DNA of 64,000 nt from Pseudomonadota bacterium (GCA_035328405.1 DAOLIT010000010.1:3529-67528), one strand, 5' to 3'. Shown: positions 2,640 through 54,147, numbered from the stretch's first letter. Program-made: numbers and translations. The notes: a model not told the origin generated them from the letters alone.

Positions 2640-3799
2640 AGCGGGAAATGGCGCTCGGGTTGGTTGGCCTGGTGTGGACCGCATGGGGTTGCCAAAAAAA
2701 CACCGTTGAGGTAGCGCAACATCACACCTTGCCCGACGCAGCACAAACCGCAGGGCTCACGAGCGCAGCCACGCCGTGGGTGAAACTTCAGCCCAGCGCG
2801 CAAACTCCGTTGTTCGAGGGTCCGGCGCAAATCCTTCCGTCGCCGGGCTCGATCGCCAACGTGATGCCAGTGTTTTCGGCGCAGGTCACGAAACTCTTGG
2901 TGCAACCGGGACAGCGCGTGGCGGCAGGTGAGCCGGTTTGCATCGTGCTGGCCCCCGAAGTCCTGCGAGCGGCAGGCAGTCTTGTCGGCGCGGGTCTGCG
3001 GCTGCAAGCGCACCTTCAGCGAAAAGAACAGCTTTTGGCGCTCAAAAACGAGGGTTTGGCGCGGCTTTCGGATCAGCTCGAAACCGACGCACGGATCGCT
3101 GAGGCCAAAGCCACGCAACTGGAGGCCACAGCCGTGTTGCAAGCGGCGGGTGTTTCGGCGCACGAGGCGGCTACTTTTTTGCAAAACGGCGGAAAAATCA
3201 CGTTGCGCAGCCCGATTGCGGGCGTGGTGGTCAGCGTCAGCGTCAATCTGGGAAATGTGGTTTCGCCGGGGACCGCGCTTTTGAAAATCGTGGGCGCGCA
3301 GGACCATCGCATCGAGGCGCGGCTTCTGTCGAACGTGCCGGAACATGCGCGATTTGAACTGCGGCTGCCGTCGGGAAAACGAATGCCGCTGCGGCTTCTG
3401 GAACGCTCTCCGCAAGCCGACAGCCGAGATGGAACGCGGCTTTCGTGGCTGGTCGTCGAGGAAAGCGGCGCGCCCGGAAACCTGACCGGAAATACGCCAG
3501 CGACCAGCGAAGCAGAGCTCGTTCCGGGGTTGTGGGGAAAAGTGGTTGTCCTGTCCAAACCCCAACAGGGACAGGACAAATCGTATGTCGTTCCGTCGAG
3601 AGCACTGAAAATTGTGGGCACGGGAGCGCAGATTGTTCGGCGCGGCGCAAAAGACCAACCGGAACCCGTTTCGGTTCGAGTGCAGTGGAGTTCTTCCGTC
3701 GAGGCTCTGGTTTCTGCGCCGGAACTCCGCGACGACGATTGGATTGCGCAGGACGCCAGCCAGCACCAATTGAGCGGTGTGGGCGGAGTGGAACGATGA
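2636..3799 (+). CDS. RND efflux membrane fusion protein (periplasmic adaptor, HlyD/CzcB-like)
   Basis: 387 aa with N-terminal lipoprotein-like signal (WTAWGC) and biotinyl/lipoyl-like hairpin (VKLLVQPGQRVAAGEPVCIV). Stop overlaps next start (ATGA at 3796). Confidence 0.75.
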   Translation: MKREMALGLVGLVWTAWGCQKNTVEVAQHHTLPDAAQTAGLTSAATPWVKLQPSAQTPLFEGPAQILPSPGSIANVMPVFSAQVTKLLVQPGQRVAAGEPVCIVLAPEVLRAAGSLVGAGLRLQAHLQRKEQLLALKNEGLARLSDQLETDARIAEAKATQLEATAVLQAAGVSAHEAATFLQNGGKITLRSPIAGVVVSVSVNLGNVVSPGTALLKIVGAQDHRIEARLLSNVPEHARFELRLPSGKRMPLRLLERSPQADSRDGTRLSWLVVEESGAPGNLTGNTPATSEAELVPGLWGKVVVLSKPQQGQDKSYVVPSRALKIVGTGAQIVRRGAKDQPEPVSVRVQWSSSVEALVSAPELRDDDWIAQDASQHQLSGVGGVER

Positions 3800-6700
3800 G
3801 CGGGGCCCATTCAGACGAAGAAACGAACTCGTGGGTGGCGAAATGGGCGAAAGGTTCCGTGCTCCACCGTCGAACTGCTGTGCTGGTTTGGCTGGCAGTG
3901 ATGGCGGTTTTTGCGGTTCTTTCGACGAGGCTCAAATTCGACGCGCTGCCGGACATCACCAACAACCAAGTGTTGGTTTTGACACGCGCGCCGGGTTTTT
4001 CCCCCGAGGAAGTCGAACGGTTGGTGACGCGCCCGATTGAGGTTGCGCTCGGTGGCCTGCCGGGACTCGTCGAGCAGCGCAGCATTTCGCGGTTCGGAAT
4101 CTCGTCGGTGACGGCAGTGTTCGAGGACGAGGTACCGGTGCTCGATGCCCGTCAGCTCATCACCGAGCGGCTCGATACAGCCGACTTGCCCTCGCAAACC
4201 GAGAAACCTCAACTTGGACCGATTACGGGTGGCTTGGGCGAGATTTTCCATGTCGCTGTCACCTCTTCCCAACGGACACCTAGAGAACTTCTAGAACTTT
4301 CCACGCTCCAAATCGCACCACGTTTGCGTTCGGTTCCTGGTGTGGTCGAAGTCAACACCTGGGGAGGGCAAGAACGAACCATGGACGTGCGGGTCGATCC
4401 GATGCGCCTGGCGACGAGAAGACTCGATCTTCGACGGGTGCGAAACACGTTGGAAAACAGCATCGGCGGCGTCGCGGGGACTGCACTGCCGGCTGGATCG
4501 GGGCAAGCCCTGTTGCGAGGGACTTTCTATCCGCAAATTCCGGCAGAGATTGGTGGTTTGTTGCTCGAAGCCGGTTCGGATGCTCCGTCTGAGGACGGCG
4601 TGCCGCCCGTGCGCGTCGGCGATGTGGCCGAGATTTTGGAAGGAGAACGTCCCAGGCTCGGGGCAGCGTCGAGAAATGGCCAAGGGGAAACGGTCTACCT
4701 GATGGCGCAAATGCTCCGTGGGGAAAACGCGCTCCAAGTGATGTCTGGCCTGACCGAGCGCATGGAGCACATCAAAGAACAACTGCCGAAAGACGTTCGT
4801 GTCGAGCTGATTTATGACCGCAGTCATTTGGTGATGAACACGCTGCGCACCGTCGGAAAAAACCTGCTCGAGGGCGCGCTGTTGGTGGTCAGTTTGTTGC
4901 TCTTGCTCCTCGGGAGTTTTCGCGCGGCGCTTCTGACGGCTCTGGCGATTCCGCTCTCGATGCTGGGAGCGGCGATCGGCATGGTCGCGTTTGGCATTCC
5001 GGGCAATCTGATGAGCCTCGGCGCGCTTGATTTCGGCCTTCTCGTCGATGGTTCCGTCGTGATGGTCGAGCATCTGTTTCATCGCCTGGACGCGACCCAG
5101 GAATACGACGCGACAAGCTGGCAACGCGCCGTCGGACAAGCGTGCCAGGAAGTGGCCAAACCGGTGCTGTTTTCCGTCACGGTCATTTTGCTTGTGTATG
5201 TGCCAGTGCTTTCGTTGGATGGCGTCGAGGGAAAGATGTTTCGACCGATGGCGGCGACGGTGGTGTTTGCGCTGTTTACGTCGCTGCTCCTGGCGTTGTC
5301 GTTCATTCCCGCCAGCGCAAGTTTCCTGCTTTCTCGACGAGAGGTCGGCAAAGTTCAGGCTGCGCCGCCGTTCTTGTTTCGATGGTTTTTGCGTGCATAT
5401 CGACCGGCGTTGTTTTGGTCGGTGCGTCATCCGCTGTGGGTCGGGGGAGCTTCTGCGTTGCTGCTCGTCGTCGGGTTGGGTCTGTTTTTGCGTGCAGGCA
5501 GTGAATTTGTCCCCCAGCTCGACGAGGGCGACATGGTGATTCAGACCACGCGCTCGTCGGACATTTCGCTCCCTCAAGCGGTTTCGGAAGCTGGAAAATT
5601 GGAACGGGTGTTGCTGTCGGAGATTCCAGAAGTCACCCAAGTGGTTTCGCGCGTCGGAAGTCCGTCGGTGGCGACCGACATCATGGGCCTTGAACAAGCC
5701 GATGTGTTCGTCGCCCTCAAACCGCGCGAATCGTGGCGGAAAGGACTGTCGCGAGAAGCCCTGATCGAGGAAATCGACAAACTTCTTGCACGTCGAGCAC
5801 CCGGCGGCGATCCGTCGTTTACGCAACCCATTCAAATGCGTTTCAACGAAATACTCGCTGGTGCGGTCAGCGACGTGGCGGTGAGCGTTTTCGGAGAAGA
5901 TCTGCGCGAACTCCGACGGCTGGCCGAAGCGGTTGAAACCGAGTGCCGACAGGAAAAAGGGGCCGAGGATGTCAAAATTTTGGCTCCGCCTGAAATTGCC
6001 CTGTTGGAAGTGCGCCCCCGTCCGATGGACGCTGCTTTGGCGAGCCTGTCCGTCGGCGAAGTCCTCGAGGCCGTGCAAGCGTTGCGCACGGGCATACAGG
6101 TAGGTGTCACATTCGACGGGCCGCTAAAAATACCGGTCCAGTTGCGCATGCTCTCCGAGTCACCGACGGCGTTCTCGCTTCCGACGGTGCCGCTACCCAT
6201 CTCAACAGGCGGAGTCGTCCCGCTTTCTCGCGTGGCTGACATCGAGCTGCGCAAAGCGCCCGCGCTTGTGTTGCGACACAACGGGGAACGTCGGCTGCTC
6301 GTCGGTTTCAATGTGCGTGGAAAAGACTTGGGTTCTCTCGTCGCAAACCTGCAAACAAGAGTCGCAAAAACCGTGAAACTGCCGCCGGGCTATCGCATCG
6401 AATGGGGCGGTCAGTACGAGACGCTCGCGGCGGCAAAAAAGCGTTTGCGCGTCGTGATTCCGGTCGTTTTGCTCGGAATTTCCGCATTGCTCATCCTGTT
6501 GTTCCGTCGCACACGCCCGGCACTATTGCTTTTGGCACACGTTCCGTTTGCCTGCGTCGGAGGCATGGTCGCGCTGGCCATTCGCGGAATGCCAGTGTCC
6601 ATTTCGGCGGCGATTGGTTTTATTGCTCTATCGGGGATTGCGGTTTTGAACGGCGTGGTGCTGGTGGCGACGCTGCTCGATTTGGAAAAACACGGCGCAG

Positions 6701-7122
6701 AAGCCCACACTGCTGCGCGCGAGGCAGCTCTCTCGAGACTTCGGCCCGTGCTCATGACGGCGCTTGTCGCTGCCTTCGGTTTTGTTCCGATGATGCTCGC
6801 CAAAGGTGTAGGCGCCGAAGTGCAAAGGCCACTTGCGACGGTGGTGGTGGGCGGGCTCGTCACTTCCACGTTGCTGACGCTCTTTATTTTGCCGACGCTG
6901 TATCCGTTTCTGTCCGGTCGAGCCAAGCTGCCCAGTCCAAAAAATCCGCCACAAATTTCGACGGACTTTCCAACGGAAATTCCGCCAGAAAATCCGCCAG
7001 ACATTTCGCCAGAAAACTTGACGAGACAATCGCCAGAAACCGGAGAGGCTGAGGAAACGGCACCAGACAGCGAAGTTGCGGAAAAACCCGTTTCAGAAGG
7101 CGAAGGTTCCTCTGCCGATTGA
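3796..7122 (+). CDS. heavy-metal-efflux type RND permease (CzcA/CusA family)
   Basis: N-terminus ALPDITNNQVLVLTRAPGFSPEEVERLVTRPIEVALGGLPGLVEQRSISRFGISSVTAVFED closely matches CzcA-type pumps. 12-TM pattern. Low-complexity C-terminal tail (PPQISTDFPTEIPPENPPDISPEN...). Confidence 0.85.
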   Translation: MSGAHSDEETNSWVAKWAKGSVLHRRTAVLVWLAVMAVFAVLSTRLKFDALPDITNNQVLVLTRAPGFSPEEVERLVTRPIEVALGGLPGLVEQRSISRFGISSVTAVFEDEVPVLDARQLITERLDTADLPSQTEKPQLGPITGGLGEIFHVAVTSSQRTPRELLELSTLQIAPRLRSVPGVVEVNTWGGQERTMDVRVDPMRLATRRLDLRRVRNTLENSIGGVAGTALPAGSGQALLRGTFYPQIPAEIGGLLLEAGSDAPSEDGVPPVRVGDVAEILEGERPRLGAASRNGQGETVYLMAQMLRGENALQVMSGLTERMEHIKEQLPKDVRVELIYDRSHLVMNTLRTVGKNLLEGALLVVSLLLLLLGSFRAALLTALAIPLSMLGAAIGMVAFGIPGNLMSLGALDFGLLVDGSVVMVEHLFHRLDATQEYDATSWQRAVGQACQEVAKPVLFSVTVILLVYVPVLSLDGVEGKMFRPMAATVVFALFTSLLLALSFIPASASFLLSRREVGKVQAAPPFLFRWFLRAYRPALFWSVRHPLWVGGASALLLVVGLGLFLRAGSEFVPQLDEGDMVIQTTRSSDISLPQAVSEAGKLERVLLSEIPEVTQVVSRVGSPSVATDIMGLEQADVFVALKPRESWRKGLSREALIEEIDKLLARRAPGGDPSFTQPIQMRFNEILAGAVSDVAVSVFGEDLRELRRLAEAVETECRQEKGAEDVKILAPPEIALLEVRPRPMDAALASLSVGEVLEAVQALRTGIQVGVTFDGPLKIPVQLRMLSESPTAFSLPTVPLPISTGGVVPLSRVADIELRKAPALVLRHNGERRLLVGFNVRGKDLGSLVANLQTRVAKTVKLPPGYRIEWGGQYETLAAAKKRLRVVIPVVLLGISALLILLFRRTRPALLLLAHVPFACVGGMVALAIRGMPVSISAAIGFIALSGIAVLNGVVLVATLLDLEKHGAEAHTAAREAALSRLRPVLMTALVAAFGFVPMMLAKGVGAEVQRPLATVVVGGLVTSTLLTLFILPTLYPFLSGRAKLPSPKNPPQISTDFPTEIPPENPPDISPENLTRQSPETGEAEETAPDSEVAEKPVSEGEGSSAD

Positions 7123-7169: not shown

Positions 7170-8732
7170 ATGACCTTGACCCTGCGAGCGTTTTTGTGTT
7201 GTGCGTTGCTCAGTGCTCCGCTTTCGGTGGTGCGCGCCGACGGTCCGGCGGAAACCCCAAACTACGACGAACCCGAAACCAACCCGATCGACGACGGCCA
7301 AACGGGCCAAGTCTATCAACCCCCACCGGAAGGCATCTGTTTCGACGACGAAAACCAAATGTACGACTGTAGCAAAGACGAAGACTTCCAAAGCTACAGC
7401 AATCTCGACGACGGATACGACCCAAGCGCGTTCGACGACTTCCGAGACGCGCTTTCGCCGTACGGACAGTGGGTGCAGACACCACAGTATGGGCAAGTAT
7501 GGGTGCCTTCCTCAGATGCAGTCGGGCAGGATTTCACGCCGTATTACACCGGGGGCCGCTGGAACTACACCGACTATGGCTGGACCTGGGTTTCCGAATA
7601 CAACTGGGGGTGGGCCCCCTTCCATTACGGACGATGGCTTGTGCTGCCTGGGTTTGGTTGGTCTTGGGTGCCTGGGCGAATTTGGGGGCCCGCTTGGGTT
7701 CATTGGAGAACGGGCGGCGGGTATGTCGGTTGGACTCCTCTTCCGCCGCGCGGCATGGTGATCCCGCGACCTGTCATGGGAGCGCGCTTTTTGCCATGGG
7801 TATTCGTGGCTGCGCACGAAATTTTGGCCCCCCGTCCCATCAGAATCGGCCTGCACCTTCTGCCGAATCTTTTTCTGCGAACAACGATTGCGAACGACTA
7901 CCGATCGATCGGCACAAACCGGGTGATTGTCGGGCCTCCGTTGCATCACTTCCCCGGTGTCCGCGTCGTGCCTGCTCCGCTCGGTTCCATCCAAATTTCG
8001 TTGCCACGTTCCCACGTCGTTGTGCGTCCTGGCGTGCCTCTGTTTCAGCGAAGCTATTACTCTCCCTACAATCGACCGGGAGCATTCCAGGGACCACCCA
8101 ATCGTCCGGGGTTCCCGCTTCCTTATCAACGTCCGGGGTTCCCGCCTCCTTATCAACGTCCGGGGTTCCCGCCTCCTTATCAACGTCCGGGGTTCCCGCC
8201 CCCTTATCAACGTCCGGGGTTCCCGCCGGCTGGGCAGAATCCGGGTTTTCCATCTCCTCATCAGCGTCCGGGGTTCCCTCCGCCCTCTCAAAGGCCGGGA
8301 TTCCCAACGGAGCCGACGCAACGACCCCCTGTTTTCCAGCCAGGACCTCAGCCACCGCTGCACAGGCCACCGATTTTTCAACGACCTGGCCACGATGAAC
8401 ACCCGCATCCAAACATGCCGCCCCAGCAGCAGCCCCAAGTTCCAGAGCATCGGCCCCCTTCCTATCCGCGCCCTACGTTTGAACCGCGCCCCGTTCCGCC
8501 TCCGGTACAGCGCCCTACTTTTGAACCGCGCCCCGTTCCGCCTCCGGTACAGCGCCCTACGTTTGAACCGCGCCCCGTTCCGCCTCCGGTACAGCGCCCT
8601 ACTTTTGAACCGCGCCCCGTTCCGCCTCCGGTCCACCGGCCTCCGGTGTTTCAGCCCCCTATGCATTCCCCGGCGACTCGCGTCGTCCAGCCTCCACCGC
8701 CGACGGGTCAACCCGCCTTTCGCCGTCGGTAA
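7170..8732 (+). CDS. secreted W/G/Y-rich domain protein with two proline-rich tandem repeat arrays
   Basis: Signal peptide MTLTLRAFLCCALLSAPLSVVRA; RBS GTGAGGAG 10 nt upstream. Trp-rich domain (YGQWVQTPQYGQVWVP...GWTWVSEYNWGWAPFHYGRW). Repeats (PGFPPPYQR)x~6 and (PTFEPRPVPPPVQR)x4. Confidence 0.7.
   Translation: MTLTLRAFLCCALLSAPLSVVRADGPAETPNYDEPETNPIDDGQTGQVYQPPPEGICFDDENQMYDCSKDEDFQSYSNLDDGYDPSAFDDFRDALSPYGQWVQTPQYGQVWVPSSDAVGQDFTPYYTGGRWNYTDYGWTWVSEYNWGWAPFHYGRWLVLPGFGWSWVPGRIWGPAWVHWRTGGGYVGWTPLPPRGMVIPRPVMGARFLPWVFVAAHEILAPRPIRIGLHLLPNLFLRTTIANDYRSIGTNRVIVGPPLHHFPGVRVVPAPLGSIQISLPRSHVVVRPGVPLFQRSYYSPYNRPGAFQGPPNRPGFPLPYQRPGFPPPYQRPGFPPPYQRPGFPPPYQRPGFPPAGQNPGFPSPHQRPGFPPPSQRPGFPTEPTQRPPVFQPGPQPPLHRPPIFQRPGHDEHPHPNMPPQQQPQVPEHRPPSYPRPTFEPRPVPPPVQRPTFEPRPVPPPVQRPTFEPRPVPPPVQRPTFEPRPVPPPVHRPPVFQPPMHSPATRVVQPPPPTGQPAFRRR
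8100..8235 (+). repeat. 30-bp in-frame tandem repeat x~4.5 (encodes PGFPPPYQRP)
   Basis: Direct read of near-identical 30-nt units 'cgtccggggttcccgcctccttatcaa'. Confidence 0.9.
8470..8645 (+). repeat. 45-bp in-frame tandem repeat x4 (encodes PTFEPRPVPPPVQRP)
   Basis: Direct read of four near-identical 45-nt units. Confidence 0.9.
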
Positions 8733-8744
8733 TCAGGTTTCATC

Positions 8745-10256
8745 ATGCGCCTTCCCTGGCTCGTACTAGCACTCCTTTTCATGCTCAACGCGGGTTGTTT
8801 GCGGCCCGTGCCACTGCGCGACGAGTGGGTGATGTCCGAGGTGTTGCACCGTTACAATGATTTTTTTCCTGCTCCGTCCACACAGACCCCGCGCGCCGGT
8901 CTTCTGCGTCCCCGCTTCGGTGTGCCCGCGATTGCTCAAACGGGTGCGGCATTCCCCCTTGAATTGCTCGAGCAATCCGGTGGACCGTCGCTGCGAGCGG
9001 CGCTGCTTGCCCCCGATGCCTCCCCTGAAGAAAGTGTACGCTGTCTTTCGGGTGAGCATTCTCCCCAGTGTTCCCTGCTTTCTCTGGTTGAAAAAGACCG
9101 CCGACCGATGAGCCCGCAGGCGGCATGGGTTTTGTACGAAGCCCGTCCGTCTTTTGCGCTGTCCCCTGGTGGCTATGATTTCGTTCTGTCCGACGGGAAA
9201 AGTGAATTTCAACGGAGCCCCCAAGCGGTTTGGTTTCGGAACGACAACCCCGAAACGCTGTCCACGCTCAGGGTCGCGCATTTGTCCGACCTACATGTAG
9301 GCAAGGGCGACAACCGACACTCTGCCGAAATCCTTGCGCGCCTCTTTCAAGTCATCACCGAAGTGAATCTTCAACAACCCGATCTGGTCGTCGTGACCGG
9401 GGATTTGGTCCACCGTGGCCAGATATCTGGCATGCAGTTTGGTGCCCAACAGGTTCTGCGTCACGTTCGCGCGCCCGTGCTGGTCATTTTGGGCAACCAC
9501 GACATTGAATTCGGCCTGTTTCGAGCCCCAGTTCGTCGGTACGGTGCCGGCTGGGTTCACTTTGCGCGGGCGTTTCATCCGTTCCTGCATTTTTCCGTGT
9601 CACTCGGTGGATACGATTTTGTCGGTTTCGATAGCGGTCCCGCTGTGCGCTCCTTTCGGATTCTGACTCGAGGCCTGCATCGCGACAGCCTCGACACGCT
9701 TGCGGCGGACCTGAATCAAGCTGCCGACAAAGGTCGCAAAGGTGTTGTCATGTTCTCGCATGCACCATCGCGGGCCGCGCTGACCAAAACCTTCCGTCCG
9801 ATGGGGGCGGGGTTTTTCGGACGCATGGATCAAGGGCGCGCCGAATTTGAGCGTTTGTTGATCGAGGGCGGTCGTCGGGGACTTCAGGTGTTGCACTTGG
9901 CCGGACACACACACTGGTCCGATGTATTCGATCTGGTCCCAGAAGGGCGTCGCCTCAACTTCCGACCGTGGCGCGATCTGTCCCCGTGCCTGCGTCCTTT
10001 GCGAACGCCCGTCGGAATCGTCACCACGCAGGCTGCATCGCACGCGGGTGTTTCCGGCAAAACGAACGCGCGAGGCTACGGTTTTTCCGTGATCGAACTC
10101 GGGGGGCATGTCCCACGGGTCGCTACAGTTCAACACGTCTCGAGCCGTGCCACTGAGTGCGCGCAGAACGGCGCGATCGTGCTCTCCAACACCAGCGCGG
10201 CCTTTCCGTCTGGCAAACCCCGCAGGCCGTCCGCATCGCCGTCGGGGGCTTTTTAG
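8745..10256 (+). CDS. calcineurin-like metallophosphoesterase lipoprotein
   Basis: Lipobox LNAGC. Metallophosphatase motifs 'LRVAHLSDLHVG', 'VVVTGDLVHRG', 'LVILGNHD'. Confidence 0.75.
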   Translation: MRLPWLVLALLFMLNAGCLRPVPLRDEWVMSEVLHRYNDFFPAPSTQTPRAGLLRPRFGVPAIAQTGAAFPLELLEQSGGPSLRAALLAPDASPEESVRCLSGEHSPQCSLLSLVEKDRRPMSPQAAWVLYEARPSFALSPGGYDFVLSDGKSEFQRSPQAVWFRNDNPETLSTLRVAHLSDLHVGKGDNRHSAEILARLFQVITEVNLQQPDLVVVTGDLVHRGQISGMQFGAQQVLRHVRAPVLVILGNHDIEFGLFRAPVRRYGAGWVHFARAFHPFLHFSVSLGGYDFVGFDSGPAVRSFRILTRGLHRDSLDTLAADLNQAADKGRKGVVMFSHAPSRAALTKTFRPMGAGFFGRMDQGRAEFERLLIEGGRRGLQVLHLAGHTHWSDVFDLVPEGRRLNFRPWRDLSPCLRPLRTPVGIVTTQAASHAGVSGKTNARGYGFSVIELGGHVPRVATVQHVSSRATECAQNGAIVLSNTSAAFPSGKPRRPSASPSGAF

Positions 10257-10266
10257 GAAACACGCC

Positions 10267-11712
10267 ATGGCGCTGCCCAATCGACTCTGGCTGGCCGACG
10301 GGGGACAGGAACCGCCGACTTGGATTGTAGAGCCCCGCACAAGCACGGGACCTGCACCCACCCTCACCCACACAAGATGGCGACGAAAAGCTGTCTTGGC
10401 CGGCGGCGAGCATCAACCCGAACGGACGATGCTCGTCGAGTGGTTCCCGCTGTCCGAACTTCTGCCCCACCACCTTTTGCCGCTCCGCAACGTGATTCAC
10501 CACAACTTGTTGCGTTTTCATGAATGCGGGCCCGCCGATCCAAAAACCGCCTATGCGATGAGCGACGCACCGCTGGGTCTGGACCTTGCCACCATCGTGA
10601 AAACCGCCGGGGAAAAACTCCCGGTGTGGTGGGGCGTCGCTGTGCTGTGTGAAGCGGCACGCGGCCTGGTTGCGCTGCACGACCAACTTCGTCAACGGGG
10701 TTTCCCAAAGGGCCACGGTGCCGTCGATGCAAGCTGCATTTTTGTGAGTCCACAAGGTCGCGTCCAGGTCTTGTGTTTTGCGCCCCTGTGCAAACCTTCC
10801 GCGCTGCACGATCCGATTGCGCCCGAGGTGCGAAAAAGTTGGCGTTTGGCGACGGTAGCTTCCGATGTGTATTCGCTGTGTGTGTTGCTCAAATCCCTGC
10901 CGCTCCGCGAGCCGCTGCCCGAGGCGCTGTCGTCCCTTTCGGATCGCGGGATTTCTGTCCATGCCGAAAAACGACCGACGCTGTTGTGTATTTTCCGTGT
11001 ACTCTCGGCGGAACTTTTGAACCTGGGCGCACCCCTCGCCCTGTCTGAACACATCGGCCTCGAACTTTCGCGCGTCTTGCCCGCTGCAAAAACGGGCGAT
11101 GCCACCGGGTCCGATTGGGGCAACGCGGGTCCCGCGACCTTTGGGCCTTTGCCCAAAACGCTGTCGCCGCTGGCTGCAACCGCCGTCTCGCTGTCTGCAA
11201 CCTGGGACACGGTTTTGCCCAATCCCCCGAGCCCGAACAAGGTCCGTTTTCCTTGGGCCACGATCGCCCCGCTTGTATGCCTGTGTACGCTTGTGTGTGC
11301 ATGGCTCGCGTGGGCTCCTTTCGACGCCACGCCCAGCCCGCTCAAACAGGCGGCTGCACACGTTCGGATGCTGCGACCACCGCCGCCACCGCTTCCAGCC
11401 ATCCTGCCCGTCGCCATCGGGGCGTCGGGTCAATGGCGGGACCTGCGCGTGAGCATTCTGCGCAAGCACGACACCGAAGAGGAACAGCGTTTGCTGTTGC
11501 TCGTCATCAACCCGACCCAAACGAAACAGACCCTCGATCCTGAGACGGTCCGGTTGACGACAAACTCGTCGCCCACCGAGGCACCCCTATCGGCCCAACC
11601 CCAGCCGCTCGTCGAATTGCTTGCCGGACAGATGCAGACCGTCGAGTTGCGTTTCCACCTTCCACCTGGCACAACGCCTTCCGCCCCTTACGTCTTTCAA
11701 GTTTCCAAATGA
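10267..11712 (+). CDS. pseudokinase-like membrane protein (degenerate Ser/Thr kinase fold)
   Basis: Kinase-like order of motifs but catalytic residues lost: 'GHGAVDASCIFV' in place of HRDxKxxN, 'CFA' in place of DFG; 'APEV' and 'SDVYSLCVLL' retained. One TM segment (WATIAPLVCLCTLVCAWLAW). Confidence 0.5.
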   Translation: MALPNRLWLADGGQEPPTWIVEPRTSTGPAPTLTHTRWRRKAVLAGGEHQPERTMLVEWFPLSELLPHHLLPLRNVIHHNLLRFHECGPADPKTAYAMSDAPLGLDLATIVKTAGEKLPVWWGVAVLCEAARGLVALHDQLRQRGFPKGHGAVDASCIFVSPQGRVQVLCFAPLCKPSALHDPIAPEVRKSWRLATVASDVYSLCVLLKSLPLREPLPEALSSLSDRGISVHAEKRPTLLCIFRVLSAELLNLGAPLALSEHIGLELSRVLPAAKTGDATGSDWGNAGPATFGPLPKTLSPLAATAVSLSATWDTVLPNPPSPNKVRFPWATIAPLVCLCTLVCAWLAWAPFDATPSPLKQAAAHVRMLRPPPPPLPAILPVAIGASGQWRDLRVSILRKHDTEEEQRLLLLVINPTQTKQTLDPETVRLTTNSSPTEAPLSAQPQPLVELLAGQMQTVELRFHLPPGTTPSAPYVFQVSK

Positions 11713-13217
11713 CTTTTGCAAAACGAAAAACGCTATTCATGAAACTTCACGGTAGAGGGTTTAAGCTGTGGTTGTTATTAACTCTGTTGATTCAGCTCGC
11801 AGGTGCGCCTCATTCAATGAAAACTGAGATAGAGGCTGAATGGCAAAAAGGTCGATGGGACCAGTCTGCAATCGGTGTATACCGCCTCGGTCGCTCATTT
11901 TTGACTGATTCTGGGGATATACGAAGATATTATGCCTACACAAACGCCTTCTTAGGAAAGCCGCACTATTCTTATTATGTTCGCACCACAGAATCCTGGC
12001 GAGAAGATTTCAAAGAAGGAAAAGCGCAAATTGAAAGTGATTCTACATTGCGTTTTCCAACTTCGCCGATGGTTCCCTATCGAGACTATTTGGTTGAATA
12101 TCCTCCTGGTTTCTTTGTTGCGTCTCTCTTGCCCGCACTCGTTCTTCCGGCTGGAGATTATGGAGATCTATATACAAAACTATTTGTCTCTCTTATGATT
12201 CTATTTATTGGTGTATCTATTCATTTTGCGCTTCGTTTCCAGCCGTTTTTGACTTCCTCTCGAACTGATGTCGGCCAAACAACGCACACCGTGTGGATGT
12301 TCTCCGCCGTGGCTTGTTTCGCTTTGGGAACATGTCTCTGCCACCGTTTTGATCCGCTCATTGCCCTTCTGATCATGGCTCAATGTTTGGCGATGTTTTC
12401 ATCGCATTTCTACCTATTTGGCGCATTGTTTGCGTTGTCTGTCGTTTGCAAAGGAATTCCTCTTTTGCTGGCCCCCATTTGGATGTTGTTTTTGTGGAAA
12501 CATGCGAAAACGACCCCTGCAAAGCCGTGGTGGCAGCCTTTTGCCAAAGCGTGTGTGGCTGGACTGGCCTGCGGTTTGTTATTTGCCATCCCCGTCGTCG
12601 CGTCCAGCGGTCTCGCGATATTGGACGCCTTTCGATATCACGGCGAAAGACCGCTTCAACTGGAAAGCACTGGCGCGGCTCTTTTGGGTTTGTTGAATCT
12701 ATTTTTTCCGGGGAGCTTGCGCGTCCAAGATGGATACGGCTCAGCCAATGTAATCGCGTTGACAGATGGATTTTCTGCGCTGTCTCGACTTCTTTTGGCG
12801 ATGCAGTGGCCTGCTTTGGGTGTTGGTTTGATGGTGATCCTCTTCAGTTTGTTTCGCCGCATGCACGCTCTTTCGCGTGAGGCGTTCACAGAAAGAACTT
12901 TGCGAGCGATTTGCACGCTGTTTGTGATTTATATGGTCACAAACAGAGTTTTTAGCCCACAATATCTAACTTGGATTCTTCCTCTAAGTATATTTTTATC
13001 GTTTCGTGCGAAGAAACTATTGGTGATGATGTTTGTCGTTGTGCTCTTTCTGTCGCAACTGTTGTGGCGAGGTCCTTGGCTCAATTCACTTAGTTATTCT
13101 GGTGTATTCCTTCTTCTTTTTCGCAATGGTTTGTTATTCGTTTGGTCGATTTTGCTCTTTCGCTCTCCTCTTCCCCAGCAACCGGAGTCCTTGTCTTCGA
13201 GTGTCCCTGTCCTCTAG
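11709..13217 (+). CDS. polytopic membrane glycosyltransferase-like protein (GT-C / DUF2029-like), in low-GC island
   Basis: ATG overlaps the previous stop (ATGA). >10 predicted TM helices. 'VEYPPGFF' motif as in GT-C mannosyltransferase-like proteins. GC ~44% vs ~65% flanks. Confidence 0.55.
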   Translation: MTFAKRKTLFMKLHGRGFKLWLLLTLLIQLAGAPHSMKTEIEAEWQKGRWDQSAIGVYRLGRSFLTDSGDIRRYYAYTNAFLGKPHYSYYVRTTESWREDFKEGKAQIESDSTLRFPTSPMVPYRDYLVEYPPGFFVASLLPALVLPAGDYGDLYTKLFVSLMILFIGVSIHFALRFQPFLTSSRTDVGQTTHTVWMFSAVACFALGTCLCHRFDPLIALLIMAQCLAMFSSHFYLFGALFALSVVCKGIPLLLAPIWMLFLWKHAKTTPAKPWWQPFAKACVAGLACGLLFAIPVVASSGLAILDAFRYHGERPLQLESTGAALLGLLNLFFPGSLRVQDGYGSANVIALTDGFSALSRLLLAMQWPALGVGLMVILFSLFRRMHALSREAFTERTLRAICTLFVIYMVTNRVFSPQYLTWILPLSIFLSFRAKKLLVMMFVVVLFLSQLLWRGPWLNSLSYSGVFLLLFRNGLLFVWSILLFRSPLPQQPESLSSSVPVL

Positions 13218-13396
13218 AAATCCAGAATCTGGTCGTTGGTGCCGGCGCTCTCCGGTGGAATACAGCCCCTGTCTTTTCATCCGATGTGGGTTTTATCAGA
13301 CATATGAAATGCCCCTAAAGTCGAGCAAATCTCTGCACGACATTCTCGATGTCCTGGAATAAGATGAAACACCTGACGTTAAGAGAGGTTCTTTCT

Positions 13397-15553
13397 ATGC
13401 GAATTGAGTCCCTGGTGAAAAAGCGTGTGTTGTCTCTTCTGTTCTCTTTGCTGATGCTGTGTTTGGGCTCACCGTGGGCGACGGCGGCACCCAAGCTGCG
13501 GTTTCAAACGGACGTGAAGGGCGACCTTGTTCTCGTCGGAAACACGCTGGGGCAGGAGTGCCGAGCGTCGGACACACTGGGCATGCAGACTCCGCAGCCG
13601 GTGGTGGGAAAAGTCGGAAATTGCGGCGACGCGGCGACGATCGAGGACAGTTCGTCGGACGTGCTGTGGCGAGCCGACGATACGACGGCAAACGCGGACC
13701 TGAGCACGACGATCGGCGATGCGCGCAGCACGGCGATGTTGTCGCTGCCTCCGTCGTCGCAGGTGTTGTATGCGCGGTTGTATTGGGGCGGAAATCTGGG
13801 CGAGGACCCGGATTTGGCGAAAAGCGCGATCGCGTTTGAAAAAGTGGGCGCGCAGGGTTTTTCGATGAGCGTGTTGCCAAACCCAACGACAGATGTTCAC
13901 GCGAGTGTCGGCGGTGGTGGCGGTCAGGTGTACCAAGCGAGCTACGACATCACCGCTGTCCTGCAAAGGTATGGGTCGGGCGCGTATCGGTGCGGCAAAG
14001 TGGTGCGTCGAAACGTTGTAAACCGCGACGAGGACGTGCAGTTCAATGCGTGGTCGATGGTGGTTGTGTATCGCAACGACAAAGAGCCGGTGCGAAACAT
14101 CACGATTTACGACGGCCTCGACAGCGTGGACTTGGGACGCAGCGTAAACCTGGGCGTCATCGGTTTTCGCGTTCCCGAGGGTGGCAATCCACAGGGTCGG
14201 TTGGGCCTGATTGGATACGAAGGCGACACGGACAAGCGAGATTCGTTTCTGTTTAACGGAAAGCCTGTCGGTGACGCGCAAAACAACCCAGACAATGTGT
14301 TTAACAGCACGCGCAGCTTCGGAGGTTCGCCGGTTTCGATCACGGGAGACTTGCCGCAACTAACGGGCACCGCCGGAAGCATGTCAGGGCTGGATTTGGA
14401 TCAAATCGACATTTCGTCGATGTTGAAAGCGAACGACACGCAGGCGTCGCTGCAAGCCAATTCCGTCGATGACGTGTATTTCGTGGGCGGAATTTTTACG
14501 TCGATTCGGAGCCGCAAACCGGTCATCGAAACCAGGCTTCTGGCTGATCCAAGTTCGGTCCGTCCGGGGGACACAGTGACGTTCACTTCGACCACCAAAA
14601 ACATCGGTGACGACGACGGAACGGATTTGGTCATTCGGCATCCGCTGCCGGACGGACTTGTGTACGTGCCGGGTTCGCTTGTGTTTGTCAGCGGGCCGGA
14701 GCCGTCGCAAAACGGGAAAAAAACGGACACGATCGGAGACGATCAAGCCGAAATTGCGCAAGATCCGGTGACAGGAAAACCGGTGCTGGTGATTCGCATC
14801 GGCAAAGGCGCAAACGGCACGACGGGAGGCCGTCTGTCTCCGATGGATACGCCGGTGGTGGTGCAGTACAAACTCAAAACCGATCCGAATACGACGGCGA
14901 AACAGATTCCGACGCAGAGCGGAACGACAGCGACAACGGCTGGGAATCCGAATCTGCCTCCAGTGACGTTTCCGTCGGGGAACGGCGAGCAACCGGGTGC
15001 TCCAACGGTGGTGTTTCTGCCCAACGCACAGGCTGATTTGCGCGTGGTCGTGACGAAAACTCCGCCATTCCCCGACCCAAACACGCCAGTCAACTACGGT
15101 GTGGATGTCAAGAATGTCGGTGGGACGGGCGATCCGGGCCCGATCCATGTGACGTTCAAAGTGCCGCCGGGCGGCGTGATCGATCAGGTGACTCCGGGTC
15201 CGGGTTGGTCGTGTACACAACAAGAGCGAACGGTGTATTGCACTCGCTACGAACCGTTGCCTGCCGGCGCGGAAACGCACGCGGTGGACGTTGTGGTGCG
15301 GAATCCGAACCCGGTCGCTGCCGACAGCCAAGTGGAGGCACAGGCGGGATCGGATGGCGCTCTCGACCCGAATCCGGCGGACAACTACTGGAGTGAATAC
15401 GGGGCGAATCGGCGAATCGCGGGCGGTGGAATCGGTTGTTCGGTTCGCGGAGAGAACAGTTCGGCTGGCAGCGGCGCGCTGGTTGCGTTGCTTCTTTGCC
15501 TTGTGGCTTTGCTTGTGCCACGCAGCGCCCGCCGTATCGGAAAGCGATCTTAG
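13397..15553 (+). CDS. secreted DUF11-repeat surface protein with MYXO-CTERM-like C-terminal sorting signal
   Basis: Signal peptide with RBS AAGAGAGG upstream. DUF11-like segments (VTFTSTTKNIGDDDGTDLVIRHPLPDGLVYVPGS; RVVVTKTPPFPDPNTPVNYGVDVKNVGG). C-terminus GGGIGCSVRG...ALVALLLCLVALLVPRSARRIGKRS (Cys + Gly-rich + TM + Arg cluster). Confidence 0.7.
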   Translation: MRIESLVKKRVLSLLFSLLMLCLGSPWATAAPKLRFQTDVKGDLVLVGNTLGQECRASDTLGMQTPQPVVGKVGNCGDAATIEDSSSDVLWRADDTTANADLSTTIGDARSTAMLSLPPSSQVLYARLYWGGNLGEDPDLAKSAIAFEKVGAQGFSMSVLPNPTTDVHASVGGGGGQVYQASYDITAVLQRYGSGAYRCGKVVRRNVVNRDEDVQFNAWSMVVVYRNDKEPVRNITIYDGLDSVDLGRSVNLGVIGFRVPEGGNPQGRLGLIGYEGDTDKRDSFLFNGKPVGDAQNNPDNVFNSTRSFGGSPVSITGDLPQLTGTAGSMSGLDLDQIDISSMLKANDTQASLQANSVDDVYFVGGIFTSIRSRKPVIETRLLADPSSVRPGDTVTFTSTTKNIGDDDGTDLVIRHPLPDGLVYVPGSLVFVSGPEPSQNGKKTDTIGDDQAEIAQDPVTGKPVLVIRIGKGANGTTGGRLSPMDTPVVVQYKLKTDPNTTAKQIPTQSGTTATTAGNPNLPPVTFPSGNGEQPGAPTVVFLPNAQADLRVVVTKTPPFPDPNTPVNYGVDVKNVGGTGDPGPIHVTFKVPPGGVIDQVTPGPGWSCTQQERTVYCTRYEPLPAGAETHAVDVVVRNPNPVAADSQVEAQAGSDGALDPNPADNYWSEYGANRRIAGGGIGCSVRGENSSAGSGALVALLLCLVALLVPRSARRIGKRS

Positions 15554-15565
15554 GGAGCCTTCGCC

Positions 15566-17413
15566 ATGAACTTCTTTTCTCGTGCTTCTTTTTGCTTTCT
15601 CGTCAGTGTCGGTCTGTGTGCGCAAAACGCCTACGCCGAGCCCAAACAAGGTTTTGAGCTCAACCGATATCAACCCACGGCTGCCGGGGAATGGTCGTTT
15701 GCCGTAGACCATCCTTGGTATTCCTCGACGCGGTATTTTGCGGCTGGGCTCACGCTCAACTACGCACACAACCCGCTCGTCGCTGGAACGCAAGATCAAA
15801 ACGGCATTTTCAGTCAAACCGAGACGCTCATTCGGCACCAACTGATGGGACATTTGGATCTGGCCGGTTCGTTTTTGGACCGCGTGCTGATCACGGCTTC
15901 TTTGCCAGTGGTGTTTTTGAGTTCCGGAGACGCAGCCTTTTCGCACGGCGCATCGGTGGGCGATCCAAGACTCGGCGTGAAAGGACGGCTGTATGGCCAG
16001 CCTTATCTGCAACCGTTTTCGGTCAGCTTGGGCCTCGATGTGTGGATTCCGCTGCGCGCGATGACGGACCGCGTGTCTTCAACGGCAAGCGATCAGGCGG
16101 TGCGCGTGCTGCCGAAACTGATGCTCGGCGGTGTGTGGAACAAGTTTATGTGGGCGGGTACGTTCGGTTTCTTGTATCGGCCCGAGGCTGTCACGATGAC
16201 GCCCGCAGGTTTCGCTTCCAGCGTGGGGCGCGCGGCATCCGAGCTCCAGTTTGGTCTTTCTGCCGCCTATTTCGACGAAGACCGCCGATTTGCCGTCGGT
16301 CCCGAACTGCTGCTTTCTACCGCCGCGACGGGTGAGGACTCTTTTTCGCGCTTTGGCACGAGCCTCGAACTTCTGCTCGCGGGGCATTACAACATCGCAC
16401 ACATGATCCAAACCGGTTTGGCGCTCGGTGCTGGCTTTGTGCGTCAACCGGGCACGCCGGACTTCCGCGCACTGTTTCGGCTCGCGTATGCGCCTATGGT
16501 CGATCGCAAACACGACCGCGACGGGGACGGCATTCTTGACGTGGATGATGCTTGTCCCGACGAAAAAGGCATTCGGACTGGCAAACCCGCGACACACGGT
16601 TGCCCGCCGCCGCCGGATCGAGACAAGGACGGAGTTCCCGACGCCGTGGACATTTGCCCAGACGTGCATCAAGGCAAGAAACCCGATCCGCAAAAGCCCG
16701 GTTGTCCGTTTGTTGAGCAGGCTGTGGACCGCGACGCCGACGGCATTTTGGATCGTGACGACCTGTGTCCCGATTTGCCCAAGGGTGAGGTGCCCGATCC
16801 ACTGCGGCTCGGTTGCCCGGCCCCAGACACCGACATGGATGGCGTGCAAGATCCGCGCGATCTCTGTCCGCAAGAACCGATTGGGTATTTCCCCGATCCG
16901 GATCGCTTGGGTTGCCCGCTGCCCGACCGCGACAAGGATTCGGTGCCCGACAAGACCGATGCTTGTCCCGATAAGCCTGGCGCTCCGAATCCCGATCCGA
17001 AAAAGAACGGCTGCCCCGGTTTGCTCGAGGTGCGAGGTGGGCAGATCGTGATCATGAGGCCGGTCTTCTTTGCGACGGACAAGGACGTGATTTTGCCGCA
17101 AAGCTTCCCGGTCCTTCAGGCTGTGGCGGGCGCACTGGTCGCGACGCCTGGCATTCGGCTTGTGCGCATTGAGGGCCACACCGACAGCGACGGCAATCGG
17201 CTCTATAACATCGACCTGTCGCAGCGCCGGGCCCGAAGCGTACGCAACTGGCTCTTGGCGCACGGCATTGATGAGGCACGCCTGGCCGCCGAAGGCTTCG
17301 GTCCTGATCGTCCGGTAGACACGAACAAGACCCCGGCAGGCAAAGCCAAGAACCGTCGCGTCGAGTTTCACATCGCCGACCAGCCGACTCCCCCACAAGC
17401 CGCGCCGCAGTAA
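15566..17413 (+). CDS. OmpA-family outer membrane protein with thrombospondin type-3 (Ca-binding) repeats
   Basis: Signal peptide. Repeated DxDxDGxxDxxDxCP motifs (DRDGDGILDVDDACPD etc.). C-terminal OmpA domain 'RIEGHTDSDGNRLYNIDLSQRRARSVRNWL'. Confidence 0.85.
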   Translation: MNFFSRASFCFLVSVGLCAQNAYAEPKQGFELNRYQPTAAGEWSFAVDHPWYSSTRYFAAGLTLNYAHNPLVAGTQDQNGIFSQTETLIRHQLMGHLDLAGSFLDRVLITASLPVVFLSSGDAAFSHGASVGDPRLGVKGRLYGQPYLQPFSVSLGLDVWIPLRAMTDRVSSTASDQAVRVLPKLMLGGVWNKFMWAGTFGFLYRPEAVTMTPAGFASSVGRAASELQFGLSAAYFDEDRRFAVGPELLLSTAATGEDSFSRFGTSLELLLAGHYNIAHMIQTGLALGAGFVRQPGTPDFRALFRLAYAPMVDRKHDRDGDGILDVDDACPDEKGIRTGKPATHGCPPPPDRDKDGVPDAVDICPDVHQGKKPDPQKPGCPFVEQAVDRDADGILDRDDLCPDLPKGEVPDPLRLGCPAPDTDMDGVQDPRDLCPQEPIGYFPDPDRLGCPLPDRDKDSVPDKTDACPDKPGAPNPDPKKNGCPGLLEVRGGQIVIMRPVFFATDKDVILPQSFPVLQAVAGALVATPGIRLVRIEGHTDSDGNRLYNIDLSQRRARSVRNWLLAHGIDEARLAAEGFGPDRPVDTNKTPAGKAKNRRVEFHIADQPTPPQAAPQ

Positions 17414-17644
17414 TCCCCGTCTGACCGACCGCCAAATCCCCTGAATCCGTCACGCTGCGCTGAATCGGGCGCAACAGTGACGGTCCTCCTTCCCTACTTA
17501 GGCACACATATCAGGATCTATGGGTCGCCATGCGTGCGGCTCGACACACGAACACAGCACTGCACAAGCGGAACACACACCGCAAAAGGAACGAACTGTG
17601 GATTTGGGAGGGAAGATTGCGAGAAAGGAGGACGGAAAACAGAC

Positions 17645-17682
17645 GGCCCCTCTTTCGTTGTGGTTTTCGCGAAAGAGAGGCC
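17645..17682. terminator. hairpin between convergent ompA-family gene and groEL (putative bidirectional terminator)
   Basis: Inverted repeat ggcccctctttcg / cgaaagagaggcc (1 mismatch) with 11-nt loop, just 3' of the groEL stop. Confidence 0.4.
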
Positions 17683-17695
17683 GCTCGGCAGGCGG

Positions 17696-19330
<1,635 letters not shown>

Positions 19331-23903: not shown

Positions 23904-24977
23904 AAACAGGCGCAACAGATGCGCTTCATACATCGGGTTCGCGATTTCAACGCACTGCGCAGTGTCCGACACTGTAAGCAAACCTGCGTCCATAAGGTAA
24001 GACTGCACTTCGTCGCAACGATCGAATGGCACCGGTTCCGCTGAAAGAAGCCTTTGCAGAAATTCTTGTGCTTCTTTTCTGTCTTTTACCGCGTCGGAAA
24101 TGGACAAAAGGTGTACGCAATCCTCCGACACGATCTGCTCTGTGATGGCTCGGACTTCGTGGGCGGATATGGTTTTGCTCGCGTTCGGTTCATTCCCTTT
24201 GCGCGGATATCCGAGCTGTTCATCCAGTTGCCAAAGCACGCGACTGACGAGCCACGGTTGCCCTCGGGTTTTCAACCAAAGTTCCGTCCGGGCGCGCCGG
24301 TCCAAAGACACCCCACTTTCCAGACAGTATTCAGCCAGAAGTTGTTCGACCTCACTTTCGGAAAACACCGGCAAAAAAACCGTGTGGGACACGTTCCATA
24401 ACGATCCTGAGCCCCGCGTTTCGTCGATTTGCGGTCGCAGGTCGTCCCGCAGGTCCCGGACATGGGTTTTGCCGCACAGCACGATCGCGTGAACAAACGG
24501 CCTGCTGTCGTCTTGCAAACACAATGCCGAACGAAACGTGCGCAACAGCGAGATCGTCAACTTACGCGGCGGCGCGTCGTACTCGTCGAGCAGCAACACC
24601 AGTTTTTTGCACAGCCGTTTTTGGATTTCCCCCAGATAGAAACAGAACGACAGGCTTTGAGGTTCCGTGGGGCTCCACTTGGGCAACGCGGGCAACGGGT
24701 ACGACGCATGCAGCGTTGCTTCGATGTGTCGGCACAAACCGAGCAGGCTTTGGTCTTCGGCGACTTGAAGCGAACACAACGCGACCGCAAGCCCATCGCG
24801 GCGCAGCGCAACAGCGAGTTCGCGCAGAAACGACGTTTTCCCGGTTTGTCGTCCTCGGGCAATCAAAAGCGACTCGCCTCGCCGCACTGCTGTAAGAGGT
24901 CGGGCCAGCCGACTCGACAAATCCACCGCAAAATGCCGCCCCGGCACGCAAGGTCCCGTGATGTGAAACGTGCGCAT
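23898..24977 (-). CDS. AAA-like P-loop ATPase, hypothetical
   Basis: Walker A 'ARGRQTGKTSFL', Walker B-like 'LVLLLDEYD'. Convergent with the kinase gene and overlapping it by 6 nt. Confidence 0.6.
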   Translation of the reverse strand: MRTFHITGPCVPGRHFAVDLSSRLARPLTAVRRGESLLIARGRQTGKTSFLRELAVALRRDGLAVALCSLQVAEDQSLLGLCRHIEATLHASYPLPALPKWSPTEPQSLSFCFYLGEIQKRLCKKLVLLLDEYDAPPRKLTISLLRTFRSALCLQDDSRPFVHAIVLCGKTHVRDLRDDLRPQIDETRGSGSLWNVSHTVFLPVFSESEVEQLLAEYCLESGVSLDRRARTELWLKTRGQPWLVSRVLWQLDEQLGYPRKGNEPNASKTISAHEVRAITEQIVSEDCVHLLSISDAVKDRKEAQEFLQRLLSAEPVPFDRCDEVQSYLMDAGLLTVSDTAQCVEIANPMYEAHLLRLFS

Positions 24978-54131: not shown

Positions 54132-54147
54132 CTTGCCCCCCAAAACG

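Follow-up and report, generated by a model that had tools for sequence, protein, structure and literature searches.

Does a gene whose base composition departs sharply from that of all its neighbours have to be a recent arrival in the genome? This question is raised by a 64,000-nucleotide stretch of DNA from a Pseudomonadota bacterium (GCA_035328405.1, DAOLIT010000010.1:3529-67528; hereafter the window), in which a single open reading frame (ORF; 11709-13217, plus strand, 502 codons) has a far lower guanine plus cytosine (GC) content than the genes on either side. A first-pass annotation, made from the sequence alone, had described this gene as a single-gene island encoding a GT-C-like membrane glycosyltransferase (GT) and had considered a horizontal origin. 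We consider it likely that the gene is instead an intact and functional GT-C gene of the PIG-M/PimE type (GT50/GT87), which was inherited vertically within an envelope gene cluster and became AT-rich in place.

The GC content of the ORF is 0.465 (0.505, 0.431 and 0.457 at codon positions 1, 2 and 3, i.e. GC1, GC2 and GC3), compared to 0.59-0.62 in the five flanking genes (GC3 0.63-0.68) and 0.592 in the window overall. When every 1509-nt window in the remainder of the 64 kb is taken as background (mean 0.595, standard deviation 0.019, minimum 0.546), this corresponds to z = -6.9. The drop amounts to 13-15 points of total GC and about 21 points of GC3, so that the earlier figures of ~44% and roughly 20 points fit the third codon positions and go slightly too far for total GC, which is 46.5%. 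Within the gene, minima of 300-nt windows go down to 0.417. On the 5' side, GC drops from 0.58-0.62 to 0.38-0.40 over ~40 nt at about 11680-11700, in the last ~8 codons of the upstream pseudokinase gene; on the 3' side it is back up at ~13440, past a 179-nt spacer and the codons for the signal peptide of the DUF11 protein that is encoded next. The proposed drop across exactly one gene was thus borne out by sliding-window analysis, and codon usage proved to be atypical as well. An index similar to the codon adaptation index, built on 13 genes of the window, is 0.51 for the low-GC gene and 0.64-0.78 for those 13 genes. The codons TTA, CTA, ATA, AGA, ACA, ACT and TCT are strongly enriched, the rare ones among them (TTA, CTA, ATA, AGA) many-fold. 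In base composition and codon usage, the gene therefore looks like a horizontally acquired island. The dip is not a general effect of membrane proteins, as had been allowed for beforehand, because the gene for a polytopic RND transporter in the same window (3445-7122) has a normal GC of 0.59 and a GC3 of 0.625.

All public sources label the encoded protein 'hypothetical'. It comprises 502 amino acids when translated from 11709, and the NCBI annotation (HMU38146.1) starts at Met11 (11739), 30 nt downstream, which gives 492 amino acids. Pfam and NCBIfam scans of the window protein returned nothing above threshold (DUF4029 remained sub-threshold at E = 0.035); the Pfam model of GT87 (PF09594, formerly DUF2029) gave no match at E <= 0.1, and neither did the PIG-M model (PF05007) match. 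More was gained from its relatives. We found 91 homologues among 5.8 billion proteins, most of which carry PF09594. When the 20 close homologues that make up our alignment A1 were scanned singly, 10 matched GT87 (best E = 1.7e-11) and one matched PF05007 (E = 2e-4). A profile built from 39 family members (A3) matches GPI mannosyltransferase I (Gpi14/PIG-M) across nearly its full length with E = 1.1e-10 and the mycobacterial PimE with E = 1.3e-3. The AlphaFold model is of high confidence (predicted local distance difference test score (pLDDT) 87.7, predicted template modelling score (pTM) 0.90) and has the characteristics of the GT-C fold: the protein is polytopic, with a conserved N-terminal transmembrane module and juxtamembrane helices in the first extracytoplasmic loop. 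Sequence comparison places the window GT on the fringe of GT87/GT50, within a divergent clade. Of the GT-C assignment and the lipid-linked sugar donor, which the first-pass annotation had proposed on the basis of a 'VEYPPGFF' loop (present at residues 129-136), the former is well supported by the A3 profile and by the conserved residues, and the latter is made probable by them.

These residues correspond to functional positions of PimE and Gpi14. The segment D70-I-R-R-Y74 (11916-11930; this and all further features of the window lie on the plus strand unless stated otherwise) stands at the start of the first juxtamembrane helix and, judged by conservation, alignment and model, contains the predicted catalytic base and a supporting Tyr. 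D70 and Y74 are invariant in A1 and at least 90% conserved in A3, D70 is aligned with the second Asp of the DID motif of Gpi14/PIG-M, and helix 69-81 of the AlphaFold model begins at D70. The spacing D70-x-x-x-Y74 is the same as that of PimE D58/Y62, the catalytic base and its support (PMC12041525). D70 is the conserved acidic residue in the first extracytoplasmic loop that is typical of GT-C enzymes, and its role is predicted to be catalytic. The end of this periplasmic loop carries the family signature P123-YRDYLVEYPPG-134 (12075-12110), in which P123, Y124, R125, D126, E130, Y131, P132, P133 and G134 are invariant in A1. Its 'EYPPG' is aligned with 'FTYPPF' of PimE, which puts Y131 opposite the essential PimE residue Y92 (Y92A abolishes activity; PMC12041525). 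K248 (12450-12452), invariant in 39/39 sequences of A3, is a predicted ligand of polyprenyl phosphate. It is aligned with the Lys of 'HFKIYPI' in Gpi14 and with K195 in 'GVKLTPL' of PimE, which binds phosphate and cannot be replaced by Ala without abolishing activity (PMC12041525). A second conserved periplasmic motif, Y310-H311-G-E-R314-P315-L-Q317-L-E319-S320 (12636-12668), is invariant in A1, with R314, E319 and S320 invariant also in A3, and probably binds phosphate or sugar. Its 'YH' is aligned with the 'YH' of Gpi14; Y310-H311 may also be the counterpart of PimE H321/H322, a pairing that was drawn by analogy and not from an alignment.

K248, through its alignment with PimE K195, and the YH motif point to a polyprenyl-phosphate-linked sugar donor. 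As three of the four closest enzymes among the solved matches use dolichol phosphate mannose (Dol-P-Man) or polyprenyl-P-Man, mannose is most likely the sugar. By analogy to these enzymes, the reaction of the window GT would take place on the periplasmic side of the inner membrane, with a polyprenyl-phosphate carrier as the source of the sugar and a glycolipid or glycan of the envelope as acceptor. The catalytic base in an inverting mechanism would be D70, which sits at the tip of the first juxtamembrane helix, and K248 together with the Y310-H311 motif may hold the lipid phosphate.

If the gene had been acquired recently, it should be missing from the corresponding site in relatives or have a phylogeny of its own. 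We found neither. The order of genes for a metallophosphoesterase (Metallophos), the pseudokinase and the GT is kept in the loci L003-L007, L093, L094 and L097 and partly in L095 (~10 loci counted), in some of them with an extra gene between pseudokinase and GT. These loci stem from uncultured Polyangia/Myxococcales, and their GTs are 41-47% identical to that of the window. Neighbour-joining trees (416-460 columns) of GT, Metallophos and pseudokinase recover the same two clades, A (L093, L095, L003, L004, L094) and B (L005, L006, L097, L007), with the window on its own long branch in all three. In a three-point comparison with clades A and B, the window branch of the GT has a relative length of 1.54 (1.73 when only taxa without a GC dip are considered), next to 1.50 for Metallophos and 1.55 for the pseudokinase. 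The divergence of the GT from its orthologues hence appears to be that expected from its neighbours, apart from an excess of ~15% at most. Its composition-corrected dinucleotide distance to the host is 0.102, where the background is 0.073 +/- 0.027 and an equal or greater distance is reached by 18 of 119 host chunks; the TA depletion and the AA/TT excess of the host are retained in the gene. We detected no tRNA in positions 1-30000 of the window, no repeats bracketing the GT gene other than short chance repeats, and no mobility genes such as an integrase or transposase flanking it. Among the 5.8 billion proteins, no GT homologue falls between 47% and 98% identity, and there is thus no sampled donor. 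Synteny, congruent trees, proportional branches, host-like dinucleotides and the lack of integration hallmarks together leave a recent horizontal acquisition, and with it the single-gene island, unsupported.

The GC content of the gene in relatives indicates how the dip may have come about. The GT lies ~14 points below its flanks in the window and ~9 points below them in L003, L004 and L094, and the difference is about 0 to -4 points in L005-L007, L093 (both of its GT copies), L095, L097 and L002. In L003 the dip is likewise restricted to the GT gene. It had been anticipated that vertical inheritance with the same low GC in all relatives would speak against an island; the inheritance appears to be vertical, whereas the low GC is lineage-specific and graded. 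In the GT tree, the two lineages with a dip are separated by taxa without one, since L002, the sister of the window, is normal and so are the first GT copy of L093 and L095, the sisters of L003/L004/L094. Two independent GC declines are therefore the simplest reading of this tree. In the window gene, GC3 stays at a low 0.38-0.52 whatever the conservation class, even in the codons of residues that are at least 90% conserved, and GC1 is 0.61-0.68 at conserved residues and 0.39 at variable ones. Residues with AT-rich codons (FYMINK) account for 23.5% of the window GT compared to 15-18% in orthologues without the dip. A pervasive AT-ward pressure that is filtered by protein constraint would produce this pattern.

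The history that we propose for the gene would thus be one in which synonymous sites shifted throughout, codon positions 1 and 2 shifted only where the protein tolerates change, and a weaker shift of a similar kind arose independently in a second sub-clade. As to the cause, our best guess is a regime peculiar to this gene, in which selection on GC and codon usage is weak or reversed. It may be speculated that this regime reflects selection for translating the polytopic enzyme slowly or at a low level, selection that favours AT-rich DNA because it serves as a regulatory target, or a local release from whatever force maintains the high GC of the remaining genome.

Several points weigh against AT enrichment in place. 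The GC of the codon positions (50.5/43.1/45.7) resembles that of a gene long equilibrated at ~46% GC, which an origin from a low-GC genome would match too, and the mechanism that would confine the AT shift to one gene is hypothetical. The background composition was drawn from 64 kb and not from the whole genome, several deep nodes of the neighbour-joining trees have bootstrap values below 50%, and the window protein itself does not match the Pfam GT87 model. Furthermore, the nearest relative of the window GT is L002 (bootstrap 94-96%, 51% identity), which has no other gene in common with the window; its genomic surroundings differ, which implies that there has been some rearrangement or paralogy. 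Hidden paralogy may also be left by L093, where two tandem GT-C copies (3218-4780 and 4785-6326; 56% identical to each other) follow the pseudokinase gene. The first is the orthologue in clade A and the second an older paralogue of uncertain placement. What had appeared as a 520-amino-acid 'insert' in L093 is this second copy, and the tree and branch analyses, once redone, led to the same conclusion.

Some of these points would be accommodated by an orthologous (xenologous) replacement, in which homologous recombination introduced the allele of an unsampled lower-GC relative with the same cluster. Such an event would account for the sharp boundaries at the gene edges, for the equilibrium-like GC of the codon positions and for the pairing of the window GT with L002 rather than with a syntenic orthologue. 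The population does recombine. Across positions 8603-18142, the window is identical to the same-species contigs L001, L088 and L090 save for patches of ~1-1.5 kb with ~1% divergence and a synonymous polymorphism (pS) of 0.013-0.020, which lie in a different gene in each contig and constitute a mosaic of homologous recombination tracts. Nevertheless, every sampled family member resides in a locus of 55-75% GC, so that no candidate donor lineage is seen, and the donor would need to have the recipient's exact distance from clades A and B. The weaker dip in L003/L004/L094 would require a second event of this kind, and the compositional signature of the gene is host-like. We consider a replacement rather unlikely for these reasons and retain vertical inheritance with AT enrichment in place.

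A further proposal concerns the function of the enzyme, namely that it glycosylates the product of the next gene in the manner of a protein O- or N-mannosyltransferase. That gene (13397-15553) encodes a DUF3344/DUF11 surface protein (Pfam DUF11 E = 7e-11, DUF3344 E = 2.5e-6), a secreted product with a high content of Ser, Thr and Asn. In this species the gene directly follows that of the GT on the same strand, and proteins are indeed substrates of some GT-C enzymes. The first-pass annotation had named this MYXO-CTERM protein as a plausible target. The DUF11 assignment holds, but no MYXO-CTERM model of NCBIfam/TIGRFAM matched at E <= 0.1, and it is only by eye that the Cys/hydrophobic/basic tail 'GGGIGCSVRG…LVALLLCLVALLVPRSARR' resembles such a sorting signal. 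The genes are separated by an AT-rich spacer of 179 nt (13218-13396, GC 0.469), presumably the promoter region of the next operon. Promoter and terminator matches in this spacer are no commoner than in shuffled sequence, and an Rfam scan of it reached the gathering score of no family, with CRISPR-DR23 (E = 0.65) as the sole match. The DUF11 gene adjoins the GT gene only in contigs of the same species and lies outside the conserved cluster, as the adjacency is missing from every relative examined. Instead, genes near the GT in relatives encode a polysaccharide deacetylase (L003, L097, L008, L009) or a second GT-C enzyme of the PMT_2 family (L007, L093, L095), and a GT4, an MMPL transporter and an LPG_synthase_TM protein also recur nearby. 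Structural relatives of the GT all act on lipid-linked glycans. These recurring glycan and lipid enzymes, together with the substrates of the structural relatives, argue for a glycolipid or glycan as acceptor and make the DUF11 protein an improbable target.

The polysaccharide deacetylase genes (PF01522) are located at 13697-14401 in L003, 3128-3979 in L097, 9403-10281 in L008 and 9476-10324 in L009. In the window, no PF01522, PMT_2, GT4, MMPL or LPG_synthase_TM gene is found near the GT.

We also considered that the gene might be decaying under relaxed selection, as an incipient pseudogene whose GC is pulled down by AT-biased mutation. It is the fastest-evolving member of the cluster (47% identity, compared to 73% and 53% for its neighbours), its amino-acid composition has shifted towards FYMINK, and its within-species ratio of non-synonymous to synonymous polymorphism (pN/pS) is ~0.45, based on small counts, compared to 0.05-0.18 in two other genes. 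Moreover, the ENA gene calls split it into an out-of-frame ORF of 73 amino acids and a fragment of 340 amino acids in two contigs (L084, 11711-12951; L085, 3426-4666; both equivalent to window positions 11977-13217). This split is a gene-calling artefact due to the composition, because L084 and L085 carry the GT sequence of the window: L084, from activated sludge, shows 0 mismatches over 21.4 kb, with a 27-nt repeat-copy gap as the sole difference, and L085 differs only at 14119, outside the gene. A pseudogene in some strains was rejected accordingly. Ten same-species contigs reach the GT gene, nine of which span it with an intact ORF, and the tenth breaks off within it. The window GT retains the family residue at each of the 51 invariant columns of A1, including the catalytic set, the protein branch is only ~15% accelerated, and the model folds with high confidence. 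The gene therefore appears to be still under purifying selection, with which the pN/pS of ~0.45 also agrees, and we regard decay as very improbable.

A local excess of polymorphism was examined as well. Of the 25 sites at which L001 and the window differ, 17 lie in the GT gene (binomial p = 1e-8). A GT-specific hotspot of single-nucleotide polymorphisms was rejected, since equally dense patches occur in the Metallophos gene of L090 and in the OmpA gene and downstream of it in L088, with no polymorphisms in the GT there.

Finally, the insertion of a single gene from a low-GC donor between the pseudokinase and DUF11 genes, although suggested by the strongly atypical GC and codon usage, the sharp boundaries at the gene edges and codon positions like those of a gene equilibrated near 46% GC, is largely refuted by orthologues at the same position after the same neighbours in ~10 distant loci and is further contradicted by the phylogeny, branch lengths, dinucleotides, missing mobility features and a next best match of only 47% identity, so that we give it hardly any credence.

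The cluster in which the gene would have been inherited begins upstream with a secreted DUF6600 protein (7170-8732; Pfam E = 2.4e-32), whose start was taken from the gene call on the near-identical contig L084. A signal peptide and proline-rich C-terminal tandem repeats are visible in its translation. At 8099-8642, a unit of the type QRPGFPPPY occurs ~6 times and PVQRPTFEPRPVPP 4 times with a period of 42 nt. The repeat copy number differs among same-species contigs, as is evident from the 27-nt gap between the window and L084. The DUF6600 gene is also kept in L003 and L007 and the RND pump in L003. Literature searches on DUF6600 and on GT87 in Myxococcota returned nothing relevant. The second gene encodes a calcineurin-like metallophosphoesterase (8745-10256; Pfam Metallophos E = 7e-16) with a lipoprotein-type signal (…MLNAGC), and the protein is predicted to be a periplasmic lipoprotein. 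Its counterparts in L003-L007 are 66-77% identical and syntenic, and it also precedes the pseudokinase in L093, L094 and L097. Just upstream of the Metallophos gene in L003, a stretch of 300 nt (6500-6799) has a reported GC of 0.343, which may reflect masked Ns or an AT-rich intergenic region.

The third gene (10267-11712) encodes the pseudokinase, recognised by Foldseek, its AlphaFold model and a family profile. The protein consists of a cytoplasmic kinase-like domain (residues ~1-315), one transmembrane helix (~333-349) and a beta-rich C-terminal domain (~375-480), which should be periplasmic according to the model. A Foldseek search of the model against the PDB gave 150 matches at E <= 0.001, and all of the 50 listed are protein kinase domains. 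The overall pLDDT is 60.7; the kinase C-lobe contains blocks that reach 80-92, and the N-lobe stays below 50. The family profile shows weak matches to PknA, BIK1 and Tribbles (E = 0.014-0.9); PF07714 is matched by 3 of 13 homologues, and the window protein yielded no Pfam match. The family has conserved APE and DVYSL motifs. The positions opposite HRD and DFG read (E/Q/D)RG and SxG in an alignment to PknA of somewhat uncertain register, and the family alignment contains neither the VAIK lysine of strand beta-3 nor a glycine-rich loop. Alignment and model thus support a protein that kept the kinase fold and lost the catalytic Lys, the HRD Asp and the DFG Asp, in agreement with its initial description as a high-GC pseudokinase.

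An overlap of the pseudokinase stop with the GT start (ATGA) had been taken as a sign of translational coupling. The overlap is present in the sequence (AAATGA, 11706-11712), but it depends on the start that is used, since translation from Met11 (11739) leaves a gap of 26 nt. There is no clear Shine-Dalgarno sequence at 11709 or 11739, and the corresponding junctions of orthologues contain a spacer of 80-100 nt or a whole extra gene. Coupling is therefore possible in the window, though neither conserved nor established.

Based on sequence and gene order, the DUF6600 protein, the lipoprotein Metallophos, the membrane pseudokinase and the GT-C enzyme as last member form an uncharacterised conserved envelope cluster. 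Its hosts are uncultured Polyangia/Myxococcota from activated sludge and similar habitats.

Downstream of the DUF11 gene follows a gene for an OmpA-family protein with thrombospondin type 3 repeats (15566-17413; Pfam OmpA E = 1e-19, TSP_3), which accompanies the GT region only in this species. It is TraB-like in its architecture of TSP3 and OmpA domains alone, as the score against the NCBIfam model of TraB (NF033763) is 199 bits, below the cutoff of 700. The DUF3344/DUF11 and OmpA/TSP3 pair (13397-17413) could be a TraA/TraB-like adhesin and anchor; no TraA model matched in the pair. Beyond the OmpA gene lie groEL, groES, an aminotransferase gene, a Ser/Thr kinase gene, dnaJ and grpE, and murC is also nearby, so that the GT gene is surrounded by a housekeeping neighbourhood. 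Elsewhere in the window, an ORF of 1403 amino acids on the minus strand (49932-54143) contains at least three annexin repeats (PF00191, E = 4.9e-45), domains that are uncommon in bacteria. The product of 21342-23903 is a fusion of a Ser/Thr protein kinase with an AAA_16 ATPase domain; STAND-type kinases are typical of Myxococcota. The adjoining ORF on the minus strand (23898-24977) shows a sub-threshold match to AAA_35 (22.4 bits, cutoff 27).

How does this locus compare with known systems? PIG-M is a eukaryotic enzyme of the endoplasmic reticulum that, with PIG-X as partner, uses Dol-P-Man to modify glucosaminyl-acyl-phosphatidylinositol in the synthesis of glycosylphosphatidylinositol (GPI), a process that to our knowledge does not occur in bacteria. 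The window GT is bacterial, shares just 14% identity with PIG-M/Gpi14 (GT50; PDB 9wno) and has a much longer first periplasmic loop of ~100 residues with the signature PYRDYLVEYPPG. Its identity to PimE (GT87, PF09594; PDB 9dm5; PMC12041525) is 13%. It differs from PimE also in its context, being encoded next to a pseudokinase and a metallophosphoesterase. We know of no phosphatidylinositol mannosides in Myxococcota. The pseudokinase resembles receptor-type Hanks kinases such as PknB in having a cytoplasmic domain of kinase fold, one transmembrane helix and an extracytoplasmic domain, and, as for envelope-biogenesis kinases, its gene is linked to that of an envelope biosynthesis enzyme. Unlike PknB, it lacks the catalytic Lys, the HRD Asp, the DFG Asp and any known sensor domain such as PASTA; a further comparison is the MviN protein of mycobacteria with its pseudokinase domain.

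With respect to composition, the closest parallels are the wzx, wzy and GT genes of O-antigen and capsule clusters and the GT-C enzymes of the GtrC type, which are likewise polytopic, glycan-processing, rich in rare codons and the lowest in GC of their region. In Salmonella, such genes have a GC of 28-37% compared to 51-52%, a pattern that 'needs explanation' (PMC3715488). Those genes are hypervariable, patchily distributed and usually ascribed to horizontal transfer, whereas the window GT has syntenic orthologues, a congruent phylogeny and a housekeeping neighbourhood and is present in every same-species contig that reaches the locus. No GtrA or GtrB partners adjoin it. The case is unusual among low-GC glycan genes because transfer is disfavoured; the enzyme class itself is ordinary.

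A strong compositional anomaly is thus insufficient for calling a transfer, as synteny, phylogeny and dinucleotides contradict it here. The atypical composition also misleads gene callers, and a clade of PIG-M/PimE-like enzymes in Myxococcota goes unannotated. The locus offers a clean natural example for the question raised in PMC3715488, namely why polytopic glycan-processing genes tend to have the lowest GC of their region. For the organism, the conserved linkage of the GT with a pseudokinase and a phosphoesterase of the periplasm may be a hint of a glycolipid pathway of the envelope that is as yet uncharacterised, although nothing here sets this pathway apart in kind from known GT-C systems. 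As a more tentative and in our view rather doubtful proposition, a functional, vertically inherited GT-C gene would have lost 9-14 GC points at least twice independently and within the coding region only, with all of its neighbours retaining their high GC, and Metallophos, pseudokinase and GT-C would constitute an undescribed, regulated module for envelope glycolipid mannosylation in Polyangia. If this is true, the low GC of polytopic glycan-processing genes such as wzx, wzy and those of the GtrC-like enzymes can arise in place and without transfer through a gene-specific selective or mutational regime, a candidate driver being selection that favours either silencing or translation at a slow or low rate.

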